A stretch of 64,000 nt of DNA, from positions 3,464,383 through 3,528,382 of the forward strand of contig CBDEVO010000003.1 in NCBI GenBank assembly GCA_965243615.1, written 5' to 3'. The DNA comes from Vicinamibacterales bacterium (GTDB lineage Bacteria; Acidobacteriota; Vicinamibacteria; Vicinamibacterales; UBA8438). This document shows, in pieces, positions 21,621 to 35,449 of this stretch (positions are counted from its first letter, which is position 1; every line of letters starts with the position of its first letter). The position numbers were made by a program, and so were the translations under genes. The notes under the pieces were generated by a model. It saw only the letters and a program-made list of their open reading frames with translations, did not search any database and was not told where the DNA came from.

Positions 21621-22442
21621 ATGCCCGAACGGATCCACGGTCGGCGGGCCCTGGCGGCGGCGGGGGTCGCCACCGCGGTGGTGATCGGCGCGGTGCTGGG
21701 CGCTGCGGCGCTGGAGGGACGTGCGGGAGTCGGGCAGCAGGACTGGCGGCCGGCGTCCGAGACCTGGCACTGGGTGCTCCCCGCGCAGCACGACGGGGTC
21801 GAAGTGGTCGAGCTGCATCCCGGCGACTGCTACGTGATCCGGCAGGTCGACGGCATGGTGTACTTCGGCGAGCCGCCACCCGACGTCCTCGAACTCCAGG
21901 CCCGGCTCGGCGATCCGATCGTGCATCGCGTCGAGGAGGTCGGCGACCATCCCGAGTGCCGGGAGTGCCTCGCGATGTCGCGGCTGACGCAGGCCATCGT
22001 GAACCGGCTCGTCGAGGCCGGCGACCGGCGCTCCATGCGCCGGGCCAACCACCGGCCGTCGCCCCTCGACGACATGCGGGGCGGCGCGTACACCGACGTG
22101 GGGTCCCCGGATCGCCCGCGCTACCGCCAGACCCGCGAGCAGCGCATGGCGTACCTGCACCTGCAGACCGCCGCACGGGACAACTGCTACGCCGCCCAAG
22201 TGCCGCGGACGCTGACGATTCACATCCGGGACCGGCAGCACCGCCCCGACCGCACCGGGTTCTACAGCGGCTATCTCTATCTGGAACACCACCACGCGCC
22301 GGCCCCGGGGCGGGTGGCCAGGAGTCTGCGCCTTGGAACGGTGCGGTTTCCCGGGGGATTGACTGGGCGGCAGGCGGAACCGCAAGGCGACGCTTTCACG
22401 GCCCGCAACGAGCGCGTTCTATTGGAGGCGAACCACCGATGA
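21621..22442 (+). CDS. Hypothetical exported/membrane-anchored protein
   Basis: N-terminal hydrophobic segment, CRECL motif, -10-like TAGAAT at 21606, ATGA overlap with the next gene. Confidence 0.65.
   Translation: MPERIHGRRALAAAGVATAVVIGAVLGAAALEGRAGVGQQDWRPASETWHWVLPAQHDGVEVVELHPGDCYVIRQVDGMVYFGEPPPDVLELQARLGDPIVHRVEEVGDHPECRECLAMSRLTQAIVNRLVEAGDRRSMRRANHRPSPLDDMRGGAYTDVGSPDRPRYRQTREQRMAYLHLQTAARDNCYAAQVPRTLTIHIRDRQHRPDRTGFYSGYLYLEHHHAPAPGRVARSLRLGTVRFPGGLTGRQAEPQGDAFTARNERVLLEANHR
22315..22395 (+). repeat. Copy of the ~80-bp dispersed repeat, in frame in the 3' end of ORF 21621-22442
   Basis: 62/81 identity to 2062-2142. Confidence 0.8.
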
Positions 22443-23503
22443 AACGACTTCTGATGACCCTCTCCATCGTCGCCCTGGCCGTGTTCGCGGCCCAGTGGCA
22501 GACCCGCGTCGCCGCTCTGCAGAGCCCCGACGGCAGCCCCAGCCACCGCTTCGAGGAGCTCGCCGACGGGGTCTGGTTCGCCATCGCCTCCGGGTCGATG
22601 ACGGTCATGAGCAACTCGCTCGTCATCATCAACGACGACCACGTCATGATCGTCGACACCGCGGTGACCCCCGCCGCCGCGCGCGGGCTCCTCGAGGGCA
22701 TCGCGACCCTGACCGACAAGCCCGTCCGCTACGTCTTCAACACCCACTACCACTTCGACCACGCGCACGGTAACCAGATCTTCGGCGACGACGTGGAGAT
22801 CATCGGCCACGACTTCGTGCGTACGATGCTGTCGTCCGACGTCCTCAGCCAGCGCACCAACCGCTCGTTCACCGAGGTCATCCCCGGCCGGATCGAGCAG
22901 CGGAAGGCGGAGATCGCGGCGACGGAGGACGCGGCGGAGCGGGCGCGGCTGGAGACCCAGCTCCGCATCCAGGAGGCCCACTGGGAGGCCCTGCAGGAGA
23001 CGGTGCCGACCCCCCCGAACCTGACCTACAGCGACACCATGACCCTGGTGAAGGGCGGCCGCGAGGTGCAGCTCCACTTCCCCGGGCCCGGCCACACCGG
23101 CGGCGACACCCTGGTGTTCCTGCCCGAGGAGCGCATCGTGTTCACCGGCGATTTCTTCGTCGGCCGCCCCGGCGGCCACGGCCTGCCCTACATGGGCGAC
23201 GGCTACGTCGAGGAGTGGCCGGCCTCGCTGGACCGGCTGAAGGCGCTGGAGTTCGACGTCATGGTGCCCGGCCACGGCACGCCGTTCACCGAGCGCGAGC
23301 AGATCGACCACCTGCAGGCGTATCTCCGCGACCTGAACCGGCAGGTCAACGACCTGTACGCCGAGGGCGTCTCCGCCCAGAGCGCGGCCCGGCGCGTGGA
23401 CCTCGGCGCCCATACGCAGCACTACGGCCCGAACGCGGCGCGGCCCGACCCGCGCGCGGTCGTACGAATGTACGAGCGGCTGCAGATCAAGTACCCGCGG
23501 TAG
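22439..23503 (+). CDS. Secreted MBL-fold metallo-hydrolase (cyclase-like)
   Basis: NTHYHFDHAHGN, GHTGGD, FTGD, PGHG; signal peptide. Confidence 0.9.
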   Translation: MKRLLMTLSIVALAVFAAQWQTRVAALQSPDGSPSHRFEELADGVWFAIASGSMTVMSNSLVIINDDHVMIVDTAVTPAAARGLLEGIATLTDKPVRYVFNTHYHFDHAHGNQIFGDDVEIIGHDFVRTMLSSDVLSQRTNRSFTEVIPGRIEQRKAEIAATEDAAERARLETQLRIQEAHWEALQETVPTPPNLTYSDTMTLVKGGREVQLHFPGPGHTGGDTLVFLPEERIVFTGDFFVGRPGGHGLPYMGDGYVEEWPASLDRLKALEFDVMVPGHGTPFTEREQIDHLQAYLRDLNRQVNDLYAEGVSAQSAARRVDLGAHTQHYGPNAARPDPRAVVRMYERLQIKYPR

Positions 23504-23687
23504 AGTTGGAGGAGGACAAGGCAGCGGCGCAGAAGGGCCTGCACGGCGCCGACAGTGGTCCCACTCTCGGTGGAGACCAGAAGCACGGAGCGTCTACGGG
23601 GACGAGTTGCGGCGGCGGATGAGCCGTTCTCGACTCCGTTGTGGCGACCGCGGACTATCGGGACGACAGTCAGAGGTCGGCACGACC

Positions 23688-23987
23688 GTGTTCCAGCACC
23701 ACGTTTCCTGGGATCCGGTCAAGGCACGGAGGAACCATGGCAAGCACGGCGTCACGTTCGATCTGGCCGCCACCGTTCTCAACGATCCGCTCGCCCTGTC
23801 GGTTCCGGACGAGGATCACAGCGCGACCGAGGAACGTTGGCTGACCCTCGGTCAGGCCGCCAACGGGGCTCTGCTCGTGGTTGTTCATACCTACCAGGAG
23901 GTCGGCGTCGATGCCGCCGTCGTTCGCATCATCTCCGCACGAAGGGCAGGGAAACGCGAGCGCAGGCAGTATGAGTCGAAGGAATGA
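23688..23987 (+). CDS. brnT: BrnT-family ribonuclease toxin
   Basis: WDPVKARRNHGKHGVTF...EERWLTLG...VRIISARRA. Confidence 0.9.
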   Translation: MFQHHVSWDPVKARRNHGKHGVTFDLAATVLNDPLALSVPDEDHSATEERWLTLGQAANGALLVVVHTYQEVGVDAAVVRIISARRAGKRERRQYESKE

Positions 23988-24778
23988 AACCAGAATACGA
24001 CTTCTCCAGGGGGGAGCGCGGCAAGTTCTTTCGCAGGGCGGCCCGGTTGATTCTGCCTGACAGCGACCACGGGTCCACGGGAACGAAGCCTGACTACGTG
24101 TTTCCCGACGCTGCCGAGCGAGTACCTGACGAAGTCCGCAACGGGCTGGAAAAACTGGCGACCACCGTGAACAGCAGTCCGCGTTGCCTGCGGTTCGTGG
24201 AGAAGTCCGTCCGATCACGGTGGCAGCACCTGCTTCACGAATGGGAGCTGGAGGAGGACATTCCCCTGCTTGTGAGAAAAGCATCGAAGGAGCGGGGGTC
24301 GGTCGTCATTCATGAATCGGGCCGAAAACTCGTTCGGTGCGACAATTCGCCGGCGCATTGGGGGTGCTGGCTGGCTGTCGCTGGCAGGACGCCGAGCATC
24401 GCCCAGGTTCGCGAGTGGTTCGAACGCGACGAGATTCCGGTGGCGATGGCGTTCGAGCGGGAAGAACGCAAGAAGGCGCAGTACCGGTGCCCGCTGGGAA
24501 AATACAGCGTGAATGAGCGTGGGTGGAAGTTGTGTCACGTCGAGCCTGTGGGGATGAGAGTCCGTGTCCCTCTGCAACGGATTCCCATCGAGCAGGTGCT
24601 CGCCGCATTCCGCAACCTTCTGGATCCGGCCAACTACTTCCTGTTGGCGAAGTCGTTGGGCGGATTGGGGGAGGTGCAGGCCTTCCAGCAGGGCGTGTTG
24701 CGTTCCGGCGAGGGAACGGACGAGCGCACCGTACCTCCGCGAGGCCAGGGGAATCGTTCAGGGCGACGCCTCCACTAG
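23984..24778 (+). CDS. BrnA-like N-terminus fused to an unknown, possibly HNH-like domain
   Basis: MKPEYDFSRGERGKF BrnA-type start overlapping the brnT stop; C-terminal WKLCHVEP...NLLDPANYFLL; lower GC. Confidence 0.65.
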   Translation: MKPEYDFSRGERGKFFRRAARLILPDSDHGSTGTKPDYVFPDAAERVPDEVRNGLEKLATTVNSSPRCLRFVEKSVRSRWQHLLHEWELEEDIPLLVRKASKERGSVVIHESGRKLVRCDNSPAHWGCWLAVAGRTPSIAQVREWFERDEIPVAMAFEREERKKAQYRCPLGKYSVNERGWKLCHVEPVGMRVRVPLQRIPIEQVLAAFRNLLDPANYFLLAKSLGGLGEVQAFQQGVLRSGEGTDERTVPPRGQGNRSGRRLH

Positions 24779-26239
24779 CCGCGTGAATGCCGCCTGGAGC
24801 GCGGACTGAGCTTCGGCGAGGCGTGCGCGCGTATCGCGCAGCCACCCCCGGCTGGCATCGGCGCGCTCGCGGCCCGCCTCGAGCATGCGCGTCACCTCCG
24901 CCGCCTGCGGCCCGCCGAGGCCTCGCCGGCTCGCCACCATCTGCTCGGGGTCGAGCGCGGCCTGTATCAGGGTCACGTCGACGGGCAACGGCTCGCCGTA
25001 GGCTTCGTCGTACAGGTGCCGCAGCTCGTCGGCGGTCAACTCCTTCGGGCGCTTGCCTTGCGCGCGGCCGTACTCCGTGATCTCCGACGCGTAGTGGTGG
25101 CCGATGCGGAACGGCACGCCGGCGTGCCGCAGCAGCGTGTCGGCGACCTCGGTCATCGTCGCGTAGTCGGCGTCGACTTCGGCAAGCGACCGCGCGGGGT
25201 CGACCACCAGCCCGTTCACGACGCGCGCGTAGACCCGGTACATCTCCGCCGCCTTGGCGATGGTCTCGAGAAGCTGGTCGGGGGCGCGGTAGTCGGCCAT
25301 GCCCGTCGACGTGTTGTGCGCGGCGAGGAACACCGTCTGCGCGTCGCCGATCACGGTGCTCGCCAGCCGCCGGAGCGTCGCCATGATGACGGGGTTCCGC
25401 TTCTGCGGCATGATGCTGCTGACCCCGGTGAGCGAGCGGTCGAGGAGCAGCCACGGCGCCGGGTCGTGGTACTGGACGTGCACGTCCTCCATGAGCTGGC
25501 CGATCGACAGGGCGGAGATCGCGAGGGTCGAGGCGACCTCCGTCTTCGAGTCGACCGACGAGACGTGGTTGGCGTCGTAGGCGTTCTCGACGACGCTGTC
25601 GAACCCCAGCAGCTCGGCGAGGCGCCCGCGGTCGAGGGGGAACCCGGAGGTGGCGAGGGCGGCGGCCCCGAGGGGGCTGCGGTTCACCCGCGCGAAGGCC
25701 TCCTCCAGCCGCTCGGCGTCGCGGTCGAGAGCGGCGGCGAAGGCCAGCAGGTAGTGGGCCAGCGACGTCGGCTGCGCCTGCACGCCGTGGGTGTAGGCGG
25801 GGATGATTGTGGCGGTGTGCTGCGCGGCCAGGTCGAGCAGCGCATCGCGCGGCGCGAGCAGGGCCTCGTAGGCCTCGAGCAGGGCCCTGCGGATGGCGAG
25901 GCGCCGGAAGGTCGAGCCGATGTCCTGCCGGCTCCGGCCGGTGTGGAGCCGCGACGCGTCGCGGCCCGCGACCTCGACGAGGCGCGCCTCGAAGTCGAGG
26001 TAGTCGGACGAGCGCGGCGCGCCCGGCTCGTCCTGCCCGGCGACGACCGCCGCAATGCCGCGGGCGATCTCCGCCGCCATCGGCTCGGGAACCAGGCCGA
26101 CCTCGGCCAGCATGACGATGGACGCCTTGTTGATCTCGCCGAGATGGTGAAAGTCGTCCTGCACGGGCTGCGCCGCCGCTGGGGCGGCGCCGAGCGCCAT
26201 GCCGAGTCCCATCGCCGCCGCGAGCTGACCACGTGACAT
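24758..26239 (-). CDS. Argininosuccinate lyase-family protein with N-terminal signal peptide
   Basis: LHTGRSRQD, YTHGVQAQP, SSIMPQKRNP, PFRIGH; N-terminus AAAMGLGMALGAAPAAA-Q. Confidence 0.85.
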   Translation of the reverse strand: MSRGQLAAAMGLGMALGAAPAAAQPVQDDFHHLGEINKASIVMLAEVGLVPEPMAAEIARGIAAVVAGQDEPGAPRSSDYLDFEARLVEVAGRDASRLHTGRSRQDIGSTFRRLAIRRALLEAYEALLAPRDALLDLAAQHTATIIPAYTHGVQAQPTSLAHYLLAFAAALDRDAERLEEAFARVNRSPLGAAALATSGFPLDRGRLAELLGFDSVVENAYDANHVSSVDSKTEVASTLAISALSIGQLMEDVHVQYHDPAPWLLLDRSLTGVSSIMPQKRNPVIMATLRRLASTVIGDAQTVFLAAHNTSTGMADYRAPDQLLETIAKAAEMYRVYARVVNGLVVDPARSLAEVDADYATMTEVADTLLRHAGVPFRIGHHYASEITEYGRAQGKRPKELTADELRHLYDEAYGEPLPVDVTLIQAALDPEQMVASRRGLGGPQAAEVTRMLEAGRERADASRGWLRDTRARLAEAQSALQAAFTRLVEASP

Positions 26240-26287
26240 CGCAAATCCTCCCGAACCCGGGCGCGCTGGCGTCTTCCGCCGGGCTTA

Positions 26288-26336
26288 ACTCATCAGTTTC
26301 AAGAAAATTGATGAACATTGGTGATGGTTCATCAAT
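26288..26336. promoter_or_regulatory. Three-box site, left of fic (CATCAGTT-N7-AATTGATG-N16-CATCAAT)
   Basis: AT-rich palindromic boxes with the same geometry, inverted, as 28047-28092. Confidence 0.7.
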
Positions 26337-26603
26337 CCGCCGCCGCAGCCGGCGCCCGTGACTCCTCCATCGGGGTCACCGACGGCAGTTAGTGATGCGC
26401 CGGCCGGGCGTCGTCGCCGCGGAGCCGGCCGGGCGTCTGTGGCCGGCACCATCGCGGCGTCGATAGAGGTTGATATACCACAGAGCGCGTCGCGACGTGG
26501 TCGCCGGCAGAACGCGACGCCTGCCACTCGCATCACGCGTCGCCGCCGTCTCGCCGGCGACGGACGACCGCGAAACAGCTACCGGGCACCCGATGGAGTC
26601 GGC

Positions 26604-27950
26604 TCATTCGGCCGGGGCGGGCGATTCCAGTCGGGTCTCGAGGTCGGCCGGTACGCGAAAGACATGGGTGCGCCGGCCCATCCGCCGCTGCTCCAGGAGC
26701 CCGAGCTCGGCGAGCCGGAACAGATCGGCGCGGGCCGTCGCGTAGGCGACGTCGTGACTCGTCTGGTGCGACCGGGTCGTGTACTCGGCATCCGGGTGCC
26801 GAACGGCATGGGCCAGCAGCGCGAGCTGGCGGTGGTTCAGGTCGGTCGAACGCTCGATCATGCGCTCGACCCGCTGCACCTGCCGGACCTTGGTTTCGAG
26901 GTACGTGTCGAGCTCGTCGATTGCCCGCCGGATCACGTCCACCTGGTGCACGATGAAATAGGTCAGGTCGTTGCCGTCGGTCTCGGTGTGCAGGAACGCC
27001 CGGGCGTACTGCGCCGGCGCCTTCTTGAGAAAACGGCTGATCGAGATGAACTCGAACGGCCAGTAGCCGTGGCGCAACATTGCCCAGTAGAACAGCGCCC
27101 GGGCCGTGCGGCCGTTGCCGTCCTCGAACGGGTGGTCGAAGGCGAGCCAGAAGTGCAGCAGGATGGCGCGAACGACGGGGTGCATGAAGGCGCCGTCGTC
27201 GGCGTCCCGATTCGCGAACTGCACCATCTGGTCCAGGCGTTCGGGAAGCTGTTCCGCCGGCGGCGGGTGGTACAGCACCTGGTCGTCTGCGTCGCCCACC
27301 TCGACGCGGTCGTCCTCCGGCCGCTGCAGACGCCCGGCTGCGGCCGGGTCGCGTAGCGTGTCTGCCGTCAGCGTGACGTGCAGGGTCAGGACTGCGTCGG
27401 CGGTCAGCGGCGACTCCCTCATCGTGCGGATCGCCTGCATGGCCCGGTAGTTGTTCAGGATCATCCGTTCGCTGCGGTCCCGGGGGCGTCGTCCGGATCG
27501 GATCATCCTGGTCGCGGCGGCCCTCGTCGTGGAGGCGCCCTCGAGCTGGCTCGACGTGATGGCCTCGTCGATCAGCGAGTCGACGATGAACCGGTCCCGG
27601 GTCTGCCGGTTGACCACCGTGTCGGCCGTTCCAATCCGCCCGCCGGCCCGGCTGTCGATCCGGTGCAGCGCCTCCTGGACGGGGTCGGGCAGCATGAAGC
27701 GGAACGGCCGTCCGCGCGCGTCGCGCAACGGGACCCGGCGGGACAGGCCGCTCCGGGACAGCCTGATGCCCGTCCACCACTCTTCGCAGCTCAGGTTTGG
27801 GGGCGGGTCGAGCCGGCGCAGCGTGTCCCAGTGGAGATAGCGGCCGTCCACGATCGGGCGGAAGACGTGGTCCATCAACAACGTCGGCAGGCGATCGCGG
27901 TGCCTGTGGAGCAGCTTATCGAGGGGCAACGGCGAGCGTGGTCGCTTCAC
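26604..27950 (-). CDS. Fic-family protein with C-terminal wHTH
   Basis: HPFEDGNGRTAR Fic motif, SSQLEGA inhibitory-helix motif, C-terminal ATARADLFRLAELGLL; start approximate. Confidence 0.9.
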   Translation of the reverse strand: MKRPRSPLPLDKLLHRHRDRLPTLLMDHVFRPIVDGRYLHWDTLRRLDPPPNLSCEEWWTGIRLSRSGLSRRVPLRDARGRPFRFMLPDPVQEALHRIDSRAGGRIGTADTVVNRQTRDRFIVDSLIDEAITSSQLEGASTTRAAATRMIRSGRRPRDRSERMILNNYRAMQAIRTMRESPLTADAVLTLHVTLTADTLRDPAAAGRLQRPEDDRVEVGDADDQVLYHPPPAEQLPERLDQMVQFANRDADDGAFMHPVVRAILLHFWLAFDHPFEDGNGRTARALFYWAMLRHGYWPFEFISISRFLKKAPAQYARAFLHTETDGNDLTYFIVHQVDVIRRAIDELDTYLETKVRQVQRVERMIERSTDLNHRQLALLAHAVRHPDAEYTTRSHQTSHDVAYATARADLFRLAELGLLEQRRMGRRTHVFRVPADLETRLESPAPAE

Positions 27951-28020
27951 GAGTGCATCTCTGGCCTGAGGCGTAGCGGCACTGCCCGCGGTGAACCGGC
28001 ACTGCAACGGCGCAACGACC

Positions 28021-28097
28021 CATCAGTTCATGGGAAACTGATGAGTATTGATGCAACTCTATCACATATCATCAATTCAAAAAAAATTGATGATATG
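28021..28097. promoter_or_regulatory. Two CATCARTT-N7-AAYTGATG palindromes plus an extra box, right of fic
   Basis: CATCAGTT-CATGGGA-AACTGATG (28021-28043); ATTGATG (28047); CATATCATCAATT-CAAAAAA-AATTGATGATATG (28065-28097). Confidence 0.75.
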
Positions 28098-28296
28098 CAT
28101 GGGGTGGTTCGGCTGCGGTACTGGTGACGTGCCGACCGATTCCCGGTCATCGATTCCGTGCCCGGCCCCTACTCGTGCGGCCCGAACGGCGACCGGGCCA
28201 CCCCGCCGCACACGCCGACGATGGGGCGCACGACCCTCCGTCCCACGCCGCCCACCGGCGTACGCGAGGGGAAACGGAGCCGCCGTCGCGAACGCG

Positions 28297-29355
28297 TCAC
28301 TCCAGCAGCCGGATGCGGTGGGCCTCGCTGTCGCCGACGTAGAGGCCGCGGCCCGTCTCGTAGAAGATGCCGTGGGGCCTCGCCATGCGGCAGCGCAGGG
28401 GGTCATCCTCGGGGCCGTCGCCGCGGGTGCCGTCGCCGAGCACGGTGGAGATGAGGCCGGTGGCGGTGTCGACCATGCGGATGACGTGGTTCTCGGTGTC
28501 GGCGATGTAGAGCCGGCCCTCGGCGAAGGCGAGCCCCTTGGGACCGGCCAGGGTCGCCGCCGCGGCGGGGCCGCCGTCGCCGGTGAAGCCCTGCTCGCCG
28601 GTGCCCGCCACGTGGTGGATGGTCTCGGCCGCGAGGTCGATGCGGTAGATGGCGTTGCCTTCGCGCAGGGCCAGGTACAGGTTGCCGTCGGGGTCGCTGG
28701 CCATCGCGCGGGGGCCGTTGAGGGGGGTGCCGGCGAGGGGGGCGCCGTCGGGCGTCGTCTCGCGGTCGCCGGTGCCGGCCCAGGTCTCGATGAGGCCGGT
28801 TGCGGGGTCGACGCGGCGGATGCGGTGGTTCCCGATGTCGCAGATCATGAGCCGGCCCTCGGGGTCGAAGGCGATGCTGTGGGGGCGCCGGAGCATCGCC
28901 TCGACGGCCGGCCCGCCGTCGCCCGAGAAGCCGGCCTCGCCGGTGCCGGCGACGGTGGAGATGACGCCGGTCTCCGCGTCCACCCGGCGCACGACGTGGC
29001 TGTCGCGCTCGACGATGTAGAGGTGGCCGTCGCTATCGAACTGGATCTCGTGGGGCATGTTGAGGGCGGCCTCGGTGGCGGGGCCGCCGTCGCCGTAGTA
29101 GCCCCGGTCGCCGTTGCCGGCGATGGTCGTGGTGGCGCCGGTCTCGCGGTCGAGCCGCCGGATGCGCTGGTTGTCGAGGTCGCAGAAGTACAGCGCGCCG
29201 TCGGGGCCGACGACGACGCCGTAGGGGTTGGCGACCTGCGCGTCGGAGAGGCCCGCCGCGCCGTTGCCGATGACGGTAGTAACGCTGGCCGTCTGCGCGT
29301 GGGCGAGGCCGGCGAGCAGCAGCAGGGCCGATGACAGAACGATCAGGCGTCTCAT
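28297..29355 (-). CDS. Secreted NHL-repeat beta-propeller protein
   Basis: Repeated AGTG..GF.GDGGPA..A.L..P; signal peptide. Confidence 0.9.
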   Translation of the reverse strand: MRRLIVLSSALLLLAGLAHAQTASVTTVIGNGAAGLSDAQVANPYGVVVGPDGALYFCDLDNQRIRRLDRETGATTTIAGNGDRGYYGDGGPATEAALNMPHEIQFDSDGHLYIVERDSHVVRRVDAETGVISTVAGTGEAGFSGDGGPAVEAMLRRPHSIAFDPEGRLMICDIGNHRIRRVDPATGLIETWAGTGDRETTPDGAPLAGTPLNGPRAMASDPDGNLYLALREGNAIYRIDLAAETIHHVAGTGEQGFTGDGGPAAAATLAGPKGLAFAEGRLYIADTENHVIRMVDTATGLISTVLGDGTRGDGPEDDPLRCRMARPHGIFYETGRGLYVGDSEAHRIRLLE

Positions 29356-35056: not shown

Positions 35057-35449
35057 TCACTGGCCGGCCGGCCAGTGCTGGACGCTGATCTCCGTCATGG
35101 GGAAGTCATCGACGTTCGCCGTTGCCAGAGCCGCGTTGACGCCGGCCGCTGCCGCCGCAATCAGGCAGTCGGCCTGGTGCAGCGTGACTCCACGCCGGGC
35201 AAAGGTCTGGCGCCACGCTCCCGCTCGTATTCCCTCGGCGACTCCCAGCGGCGCGAGTCGCAGGCCGTTGAACAGGCGGCGCGCGATCGTCTCTTCGCCC
35301 ACGCGCAGGCCGCGCCAGATCTCCTCGACGGAGATCACGCACGCCCACGGCTCCGTGCCGGTCCGTCGCAGGGCAGCCAGACGGGCCGCGGCGGGCCGGC
35401 CGCGGAGCGCGTCGATGAGCACGGTCGAATCGAGCAGCAGTCGCGCCAT
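35057..35449 (-). CDS. vapC: VapC PIN-domain toxin
   Basis: LLDSTVLID, ADCLIAAAA, LATANVDDF. Confidence 0.9.
   Translation of the reverse strand: MARLLLDSTVLIDALRGRPAAARLAALRRTGTEPWACVISVEEIWRGLRVGEETIARRLFNGLRLAPLGVAEGIRAGAWRQTFARRGVTLHQADCLIAAAAAGVNAALATANVDDFPMTEISVQHWPAGQ

Follow-up and report, generated by a model that had tools for sequence, protein, structure and literature searches.

Fic enzymes that end in a winged helix are widespread, with a preprint counting, in the available part of its text, 1807 InterPro entries of this domain organization (bioRxiv 10.64898/2026.07.09.737422), and self-regulation of such an enzyme is already known. In the accessible sections of the relevant report, CccR of Yersinia pseudotuberculosis, at once a class II Fic toxin and a transcription factor, represses its own promoter via inverted repeats near −35/−10, has a footprint of ~46 nt, requires its C-terminal helix-turn-helix (HTH) and dimerization, and carries the inhibitory motif S59ARIEG (PMC9755527). 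Dimeric SoFic of Shewanella oneidensis is described, in the same portion of the preprint, as binding the 100 bp that immediately precede its own gene (bioRxiv 10.64898/2026.07.09.737422), and for CbFic2 of Coxiella burnetii the available text reports that DNA binding drives dimerization, switching between AMPylation and deAMPylation (PMC10628234). Here we analyze a fic gene in a 64,000-nucleotide stretch (the window) of the genome of a Vicinamibacterales bacterium (assembly GCA_965243615.1, contig CBDEVO010000003.1), which encodes a Fic protein with a predicted winged helix-turn-helix (wHTH) at its C-terminus and lies between inverted palindromic sites. Comparison across genomes makes it quite probable, in our judgement, that these AT-rich palindromes are operators read by the wHTH of Fic itself, i.e. 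that they serve autoregulation rather than as recombination ends.

The window Fic shares with CccR an inhibitory helix at the N-terminus, a Fic core and an HTH at the C-terminus. The two differ in their operators, which for CccR are given in the accessible report as two 10-bp boxes 26 bp apart, whereas here palindromes of 8-N7-8 geometry, two of them 49 bp apart, are joined by single boxes and by a further cluster at a neighboring gene; and CccR is described there as an effector of a type VI secretion system (T6SS), whereas nothing suggests secretion of the window Fic. SoFic aligns with the AlphaFold2 (AF2) model of the window protein over ~360–374 columns (TM score 0.57–0.58 by query length, 0.67–0.69 by target length) at 18–19% identity, the window protein having ~90 extra N-terminal residues. 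SoFic is a single-gene anti-phage system in PADLOC, whose model the window Fic matches. CbFic2 likewise combines Fic and wHTH; its DNA binding needs the HTH yet is not solely HTH-dependent, and in the available text it was assayed on generic 5–60-bp duplexes (PMC10628234), whereas the window sites are specific and conserved. EcSofic, paired with the AS1 antitoxin, is presented in the accessible part of its report as a toxic SoFic-type enzyme whose activity needs restraint, as here; a 47-aa protein is encoded downstream of it (PMC12249575), whereas the 270 nt downstream of the window fic contain no conserved open reading frame (ORF). In the literature searched, with subscription journals and supplements outside its scope, we found no 8-N7-8 operator and no Fic-wHTH recognition code, and an operator sequence of a Fic-wHTH protein only for CccR among the texts available in part. 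New here are the predicted operator architecture, its conservation across phyla, the rule connecting helix and arm, the second putative operator at a neighboring gene, and its persistence after loss of fic.

The Fic protein and its flanking sites

The product of fic is a predicted SoFic-like class II Fic AMPylase with a C-terminal winged helix. It matches the Pfam Fic family (3.6e-16; 60 bits vs. a cut-off of 24), and its active-site motif conforms to the Fic consensus HxFx(D/E)GNGRxxR, with H273, P274, F275, D277, G278, N279, G280, R281 and R284 invariant in 14 orthologues. In class II enzymes the inhibitory helix, of consensus (S/T)xxxE(G/N), lies N-terminal of the Fic core; we assign the window protein to this class because its own motif, ITSSQLEGA (TSSQLEG), in which S133, S134, E137 and G138 are invariant, stands on that side. 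The AF2 model (pLDDT 82.9) ends in three helices and a two-strand wing at residues 373–432, and Foldseek matches it to SoFic (3eqx, 3zcn, 3zec) and CbFic2 (8cil) over ~358–374 columns (E ~1e-10); at ~360–374 columns, these two and further Fic-wHTH structures show a remote sequence identity of 17–20%. The PADLOC SoFic model is matched at 2.9e-44, with profile positions 31–351 of 361 covered; the NCBIfam SoFic equivalog NF046030 gives 47.1 bits vs. a cut-off of 550, and the protein is a distant relative of SoFic, not an equivalog. The longest fic ORF (26604–28007, minus strand, 467 aa) begins with TTG at 28007; the start codon is probably the GTG at 27950, because residue 20 of the long ORF aligns with an ATG behind GGAGGA in a 73%-identical orthologue (L065).

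All the sequence elements that the initial annotation had listed around fic are present where it placed them. The left site (26291–26336) reads CATCAGTT-N7-AATTGATG-N16-CATCAAT, and the right site (28047–28092) has a matching layout on the opposite strand; 26288–26300 and 28034–28046 form a perfect 13-bp inverted repeat, and 28065–28097 make up a perfect palindrome of 13+7+13. Searching the window for CATCARTT-N7-AAYTGATG gave three perfect matches, at 26291–26313, 28021–28043 and 28070–28092, none there with one or two mismatches, and none in 100 shuffles. The genome scan that had been proposed for this pattern, run on the whole assembly (three contigs, 6,746,015 bases, 71% G+C), returned the same three matches only, the runners-up having three mismatches; the heptamer occurs 284 times in the assembly, and clusters of at least two within 40 bp are only the two described here. 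Among 22 genomes of the genus, the scan found 19 perfect palindromes in 12 genomes, all at this locus. The motif is not scattered over unrelated promoters like the operator of an ordinary regulator, a pattern that the initial annotation had named as refuting its reading: it occupies one locus in 22 genomes, and fic orthologues carry it.

The N16 segment of the left site contains a fourth, degenerate box, ATTGGTG (26317–26323). In relatives the boxes run in the order CATCART (box 1), AYTGATG (box 2), a direct repeat of box 2 (box 3) and CATCAAT (box 4); because box 3 there is a good AYTGATG or GTTGATG placed 10 bp past box 2, the left unit is one of four boxes, not three. In one genome, G010 (L003 1143–1280), box 1 and ~25 flanking bases are repeated about three times in tandem before a complete four-box site upstream of the gene for a protein resembling argininosuccinate lyase (the ASL-like gene).

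The ASL-like gene, fic and an NHL-repeat gene all lie on the minus strand, and each cluster precedes a minus-strand gene: the left one lies 52–97 nt upstream of the ASL-like start codon, the right one 71–147 nt upstream of the fic GTG. Both are better read as putative promoter-proximal operators of two co-directional genes, and fic appears “enclosed” because mirror-image clusters precede these two genes. Aligned fic upstream regions share one layout: distal palindrome, the extended −10-like element TGATA(G/C)NNT, single CATCAA box, proximal palindrome, 60–70 nt, and start codon. The TGATA(G/C)NNT element is kept in the genus, in G023 (another genus) and in L065. A simple scan of 26000–28400 for σ70 promoters and terminators gave no match, and contigs from RNA libraries that cover fic and the operator region may be DNA or derive from relatives and show no transcript ends.

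Distribution of the motif and covariation with the recognition helix

Of the 21 other genomes in the genus, 8 have full-length fic orthologues (81–96% identity), in most cases flanked by the same two genes. Inspection of their flanks, as the initial annotation had advised, showed that the arms are kept in all eight while the 7-bp spacers vary. On the ASL side of fic-bearing genomes, the four boxes are likewise kept, and the spacers and the stretch from the site to the start codon vary freely.

Beyond the genus, the motif stands upstream of fic in G023, in further Vicinamibacterales and in metagenome-assembled genomes (MAGs) that carry the labels Gammaproteobacteria and Azophilus; MAGs with the labels Spirochaetia, Rhodothermales and Latescibacterota show the same geometry with the arms TACTAATT/AATTAGTA. 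The G023 orthologue (L010, G023:C1:4280006–4284385; 69% identity) has one in-frame TGA and may be a pseudogene, and it retains two upstream palindromes. Another 80 orthologues, of 45–60% identity, came from scanning metagenome contigs, and across 94 loci from many phyla the palindromes upstream of fic have 8-N7-8 geometry with inner AATT. Successive palindromes (n = 40) are spaced 46–49 bp apart in 17 cases and 45–57 bp apart in 28; the pair in the window is 49 bp apart. Nothing comparable was found among palindromes upstream of five remote Fic paralogues or relatives (L012–L014, L016).

The genes next to fic differ from locus to locus (mnmG/mnmE, rpoD, ilvC, an autotransporter gene, HicAB and others), and a scan of 24 neighbor proteins from 11 distant loci found no family and no regulator common to them. 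ASL orthologues of other genera of the family lack the motif at all 11 loci (nine at 74–76% identity, two at 45%). In these comparisons, the motif goes with fic and not with the neighboring genes. At 36 other orthologous loci, each having a good palindrome upstream and no less than 300 nt of sequence downstream, no like palindrome was found within 900 nt downstream of fic.

The arms of the palindromes also vary with the protein. Of the 94 loci, 91 were usable for a comparison in which the helix state was taken as the pair of residues preceding the conserved T(A/S)R.DL of wHTH helix 3, and the arm state as the commonest outer four bases of the upstream 8-N7-8 palindrome with an AATT-like inner half. 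Such a palindrome is present at 72 of the 91 loci, and its arms track the recognition helix: TACT accompanies YQ in 31/33 cases (43 loci, 10 without a palindrome) and YE in 6/8 (9 loci, 1 without); TATC or CATC accompanies YA (..YA-TAR) in 17/19 (22 loci, 3 without); TACC goes with YD in 6/6 and TGCT with NQ, LQ and LM in 3/3, with no locus of these last two groups (6 and 3 loci) lacking a palindrome. The outer arm bases shift together with one residue where the recognition helix begins (A with ATC, Q with ACT, D with ACC), which is residue 404 of the window protein, the second residue of helix 403–415 in the AF2 model. On a control tree of the Fic part, from which the last 110 residues and with them the wHTH had been cut off (72 rows), the helix state changes between A and non-A at least seven times and the ATC arm changes eight times; in five independent pairs on well-supported branches, the arm change is concordant in 4.7 on average and never opposite. 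Near-duplicate rows are present in the set, and the pair test allows for them.

Proposed regulation and competing explanations

Autoregulation by Fic is favored by two findings, that the motif follows fic across phyla while its neighbors differ and that the arm bases co-vary with a residue of the recognition helix; confinement of the palindromes to one locus, conservation of arms but not of spacers, the place of residue 404 in wHTH helix 3, and the published cases of CccR and SoFic point the same way. We propose that the wHTH of Fic reads the heptamer. The two 23-bp palindromes and the single box bracket the extended −10-like element before fic. Bound Fic, probably as a dimer or a higher form, would then cover the −35 zone and the start region and shut its own promoter; by analogy with CccR, the outcome would be negative autoregulation of fic. 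In this genus, Fic probably also controls the ASL-like promoter via the four-box cluster upstream of it.

Several points weigh against this proposal. The support for Fic binding at this locus is all comparative, and the −10-like element is a candidate fic promoter by virtue of its conserved TGnTAnnnT. Half-site centers are 16 bp apart here vs. 36 bp for CccR, and the two proteins may therefore bind in different modes. At 19 of the 91 usable loci, no palindrome was found by the criterion used, and the sign test on the five pairs gives p = 0.0625, the best attainable with so few. A puzzle is the behavior of the ASL-side cluster in genomes of the genus without fic: it is kept with zero to two mismatches over the four boxes (counted by eye) in G013, G017, G014, G008, G001, G003, G020 and G007, degraded in G018 (two mismatches) and more plainly in G005 and G016, and absent in G012. 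A close relative of the wHTH domain was found in none of G001, G003, G014, G017 and G020 (best match E ~0.01); therefore, the orphan site is either a slowly decaying relic or useful without Fic, for instance as promoter DNA of the ASL-like gene.

Recent loss of fic accounts for part of this persistence, because G013 and G007 keep fic fragments and the flanks in G017 and G001 resemble those of fic-bearing genomes. The tree of the ASL gene is uninformative on the timing of the loss, being a star of 85–94% identities with G012 apart at 72–73%. The sequences also hint at recombination at the locus within the genus, because G014 and G008 have almost the same intergenic region but ASL genes only 93% alike, and identity of the ASL gene to G000 is uneven along its length. 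The loss itself was a ragged deletion that left remnants, not an excision: in fic-less relatives the ASL gene retains all of the left site and the NHL gene comes next, the junctions vary (spacers of ~47 bp in G008 and G014, ~58 bp in G003 and ~190 bp in G001, and a VapB antitoxin gene in G018 and G020), and fic fragments persist in G013, G007 and G005. The spot between the ASL-like and NHL genes is a hot spot for gene turnover.

Gene cassettes between inverted palindromic sites with a short central spacer are familiar from dif/pdif modules, IMEX elements and invertible cassettes. The initial annotation had offered two alternatives, namely a non-autonomous mobile or invertible fic cassette and a Fic-wHTH protein that binds both ends of its own gene and loops them; the binding part of the second is supported by the motif following fic and by the helix covariation, while the first, in which the sites would be Xer-like (dif/pdif) tyrosine-recombinase sites or transposon ends used in trans, is already largely refuted and in our estimate highly improbable. 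Inverted sites of equal geometry with a 7-bp spacer, the patchy occurrence of fic in the genus, the quite different contexts of related fic genes in other phyla, and a spot that in relatives draws mobile DNA (IS21 IstB, a large serine recombinase, a DDE transposase) all suit a cassette. Yet no recombinase or transposase family among the ORFs scanned, and no tRNA gene, was found within ~10 kb in the window; the locus is 0.54 Mb away from the skew terminus and a dif-like site (~4.03 Mb); no further copy of the site exists in 22 genomes; and no direct repeat lies outside the sites, flanking 26288 and 28097 (by eye). The search for empty sites, inversions and circles that had been proposed yielded no precise empty site; gene order at the locus is colinear across the genomes compared and in contigs of four public runs, which gave no inverted, circular or fic-less joint, with the limit that contigs cannot exclude rare inverted or excised forms. 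Ragged loss next to a whole left site, the lack of a downstream palindrome at other orthologous loci, and an arm/helix covariation that a cassette leaves unexplained point the same way. A dif/Xer site was rejected on position (cumulative GC skew peaks at ~4.03 Mb, with the dif-like site at 4,035,572 on contig C3 and the locus at 3.49 Mb), and a transposon or miniature inverted-repeat transposable element with terminal inverted repeats on the single locus per genome in 22 and the missing flanking direct repeat. An RNA hairpin was also rejected: the purine and pyrimidine (R/Y) positions of the arms vary independently, all four combinations occurring; the single and direct-repeat boxes are unpaired; and the distal palindrome lies upstream of the −10-like element.

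Three further explanations concern who uses the sites. Persistence of the orphan site is why a trans-encoded host regulator that would control both fic and the ASL-like gene stays as a minor rival: the ASL-side site is nearly intact in many genomes of the genus that lack fic, and the five searched contain no close copy of the Fic wHTH. We regard this as very unlikely, since such a regulator, with its motif nowhere else in 22 genomes, would have a single target and be encoded far away; family scans of the window show no regulator gene near fic, the neighbor proteins scanned at distant loci have no family in common, the motif is missing from ASL orthologues of other genera, and the arm changes track the helix of Fic across phyla. 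Fic may alternatively bridge both clusters and loop out its own 1.7-kb gene, as a special case of autoregulation that does not exclude the simpler form. The same heptamers and four-box geometry stand mirrored at both ends, Fic-wHTH proteins dimerize, and DNA induces dimerization of CbFic2 in the accessible text of its report (PMC10628234); the two-ended layout, however, is confined to this genus (0/36 elsewhere) and is not needed for regulation in the family, and we consider looping rather unlikely. More serious, if still an outside chance, is that the left cluster is a decaying copy, in inverted orientation, of the fic operator's distal half, of little regulatory use and surviving mainly as AT-rich promoter DNA of the ASL-like gene. 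The layout is identical by eye (a palindrome, a 15-nt spacer sharing a TGAT core, and CATCAAT), box 3 is already degenerate in the window, and the site persists without fic, with decay worst in G005, G016 and G018; but in fic-bearing genomes the four boxes are kept while their surroundings vary, which looks like selection on the boxes.

Autoregulation by Fic could be extended into a joint scenario, which as a whole we hold to be quite unlikely: a Fic-wHTH code, in which A, Q or D at helix position 2 would specify ATC, ACT or ACC at half-site bases 2–4, together with capture of the ASL-like promoter in this genus and an operator that is selected and still used after loss of fic. A possible user of the retained operator would be Fic delivered from fic-bearing neighbors, by analogy with T6SS-delivered CccR acting in recipients; alternatively, operator DNA may be an allosteric switch of the AMPylase, as DNA is for CbFic2.

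Gene surroundings and implications

Positions of the genes, protein motifs and predicted DNA elements are collected in Table 1.

Table 1. Genes, protein motifs and candidate regulatory elements at the fic locus, in window positions
Feature	Position	Strand	Basis or remark
Argininosuccinate-lyase-like (ASL-like) gene, 493 aa, downstream of fic	24758..26239	−	Pfam Lyase_1 4.4e-35, ASL_C2
Left palindrome, boxes 1 and 2, CATCAGTT-N7-AATTGATG	26291..26313		Predicted operator before the ASL-like gene; arms kept, spacer not, in most genomes of the genus
Box 3, degenerate (ATTGGTG)	26317..26323		Sequence and relatives
Box 4, CATCAAT	26330..26336		Sequence and relatives
fic, class II Fic with C-terminal wHTH, 448 aa from the likely GTG at 27950	26604..27950	−	Pfam, PADLOC, fold matches
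wHTH domain, residues 373–432 of the 448-aa protein	26655..26834	−	AF2: helices 373–384, 392–399 and 403–415, strands 420–424 and 428–432
Recognition helix H3, residues 403–415, YATARADLFRLA...	26706..26744	−	Residue 404 co-varies with the operator arm
Fic active-site motif HPFEDGNGRTAR	27099..27134	−	H273...R284 invariant in 14 sequences
Promoter-proximal fic palindrome, CATCAGTT-N7-AACTGATG	28021..28043		Pattern match, upstream alignment
Single minus-strand box CATCAAT, immediately downstream of the −10-like element	28047..28053		Sequence, upstream alignment
Putative extended −10-like element TGATAGAGT (TGnTAnnnT)	28056..28064	−	Suggested by upstream alignment
Distal fic palindrome, core 28070–28092, perfect 13+7+13	28065..28097		Spaced 49 bp from the proximal palindrome
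NHL-repeat protein gene, upstream of fic	28297..29355	−	Pfam, relatives; abuts the left site in fic-less relatives

The ASL-like protein scores 268 bits against NCBIfam argH, under the cut-off of 279.5; its N-terminus of ~25 residues is hydrophobic, signal-peptide-like and variable among relatives, and it also matches lyases of the coenzyme-M pathway (XcbC). The protein may be something other than a housekeeping ArgH. Pfam scans of the window ORFs found no partner regulator or antitoxin beside fic, and an 83-aa ORF downstream of fic was rejected as a protein, being conserved only where it overlaps the DNA boxes.

Other sequences occupy or adjoin the place of fic in relatives. In G020 (L053 2198–2395), an ORF of VapB antitoxin type (Pfam VapB_antitoxin 2e-16) lies between the NHL gene and the ASL-side cluster; such an ORF fills the same position in G018 and, by eye, in G016, and no VapC was seen beside VapB. 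G004 (L159, G004:C3:268900–275450) has ~6.4 kb inserted between the left site and fic, containing IS21 IstB, a C-terminal fragment of a Mu transposase, an rve fragment and a large serine recombinase of 744 aa; the flanks of the insert overlap by ~9 query bases, a possible target duplication. In G005 (L160 621–1709), a DDE_3 (IS630-like) transposase gene stands beside a 137-bp fic remnant, and in G017 (L161 296–1327) a peptidase M23 gene is in the same intergenic spot.

Elsewhere in the window, 22400–24750 has a G+C content of 0.60–0.66 vs. 0.71 and ORFs without any Pfam family, among them one of 264 aa (23984–24778, plus strand) that is 76% conserved in G002 and whose N-terminus resembles some antitoxin ends by eye; a PIN-domain (VapC-like) ORF lies at 35057–35449 on the minus strand. 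Outside the window, contig C3 of G000 shows a GC-skew peak and a single dif-like site at ~4,030,000–4,035,600, probably the replication terminus.

Sequence near-identical to 25900–28500 is found in five public runs from two studies, and several runs labelled sponge metagenome give partial matches, which hints at an organism living in sponges. In sponge metagenome run X8, a contig from a related strain is colinear with the locus except for the absence of 26537–26601, 65 bases just past the fic stop. In a contig of RNA library X20, 28096 is directly followed by 28297, which shows that the 200-bp interval from the NHL stop to the distal palindrome varies.

In conclusion, the apparent mobile cassette gives way to an ordinary though neat regulatory arrangement, in which an operator outliving its regulator is the remaining puzzle. 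Among Fic-wHTH enzymes are the anti-phage system SoFic and the secreted toxin CccR, and our comparison provides a family-wide operator model for them, xxxxAATT-N7-AATTxxxx, usually in two copies ~48 bp apart around the −10. The recognition rule drawn from 91 natural loci would allow targets to be predicted for uncharacterized Fic-wHTH proteins and specificity swaps to be designed.

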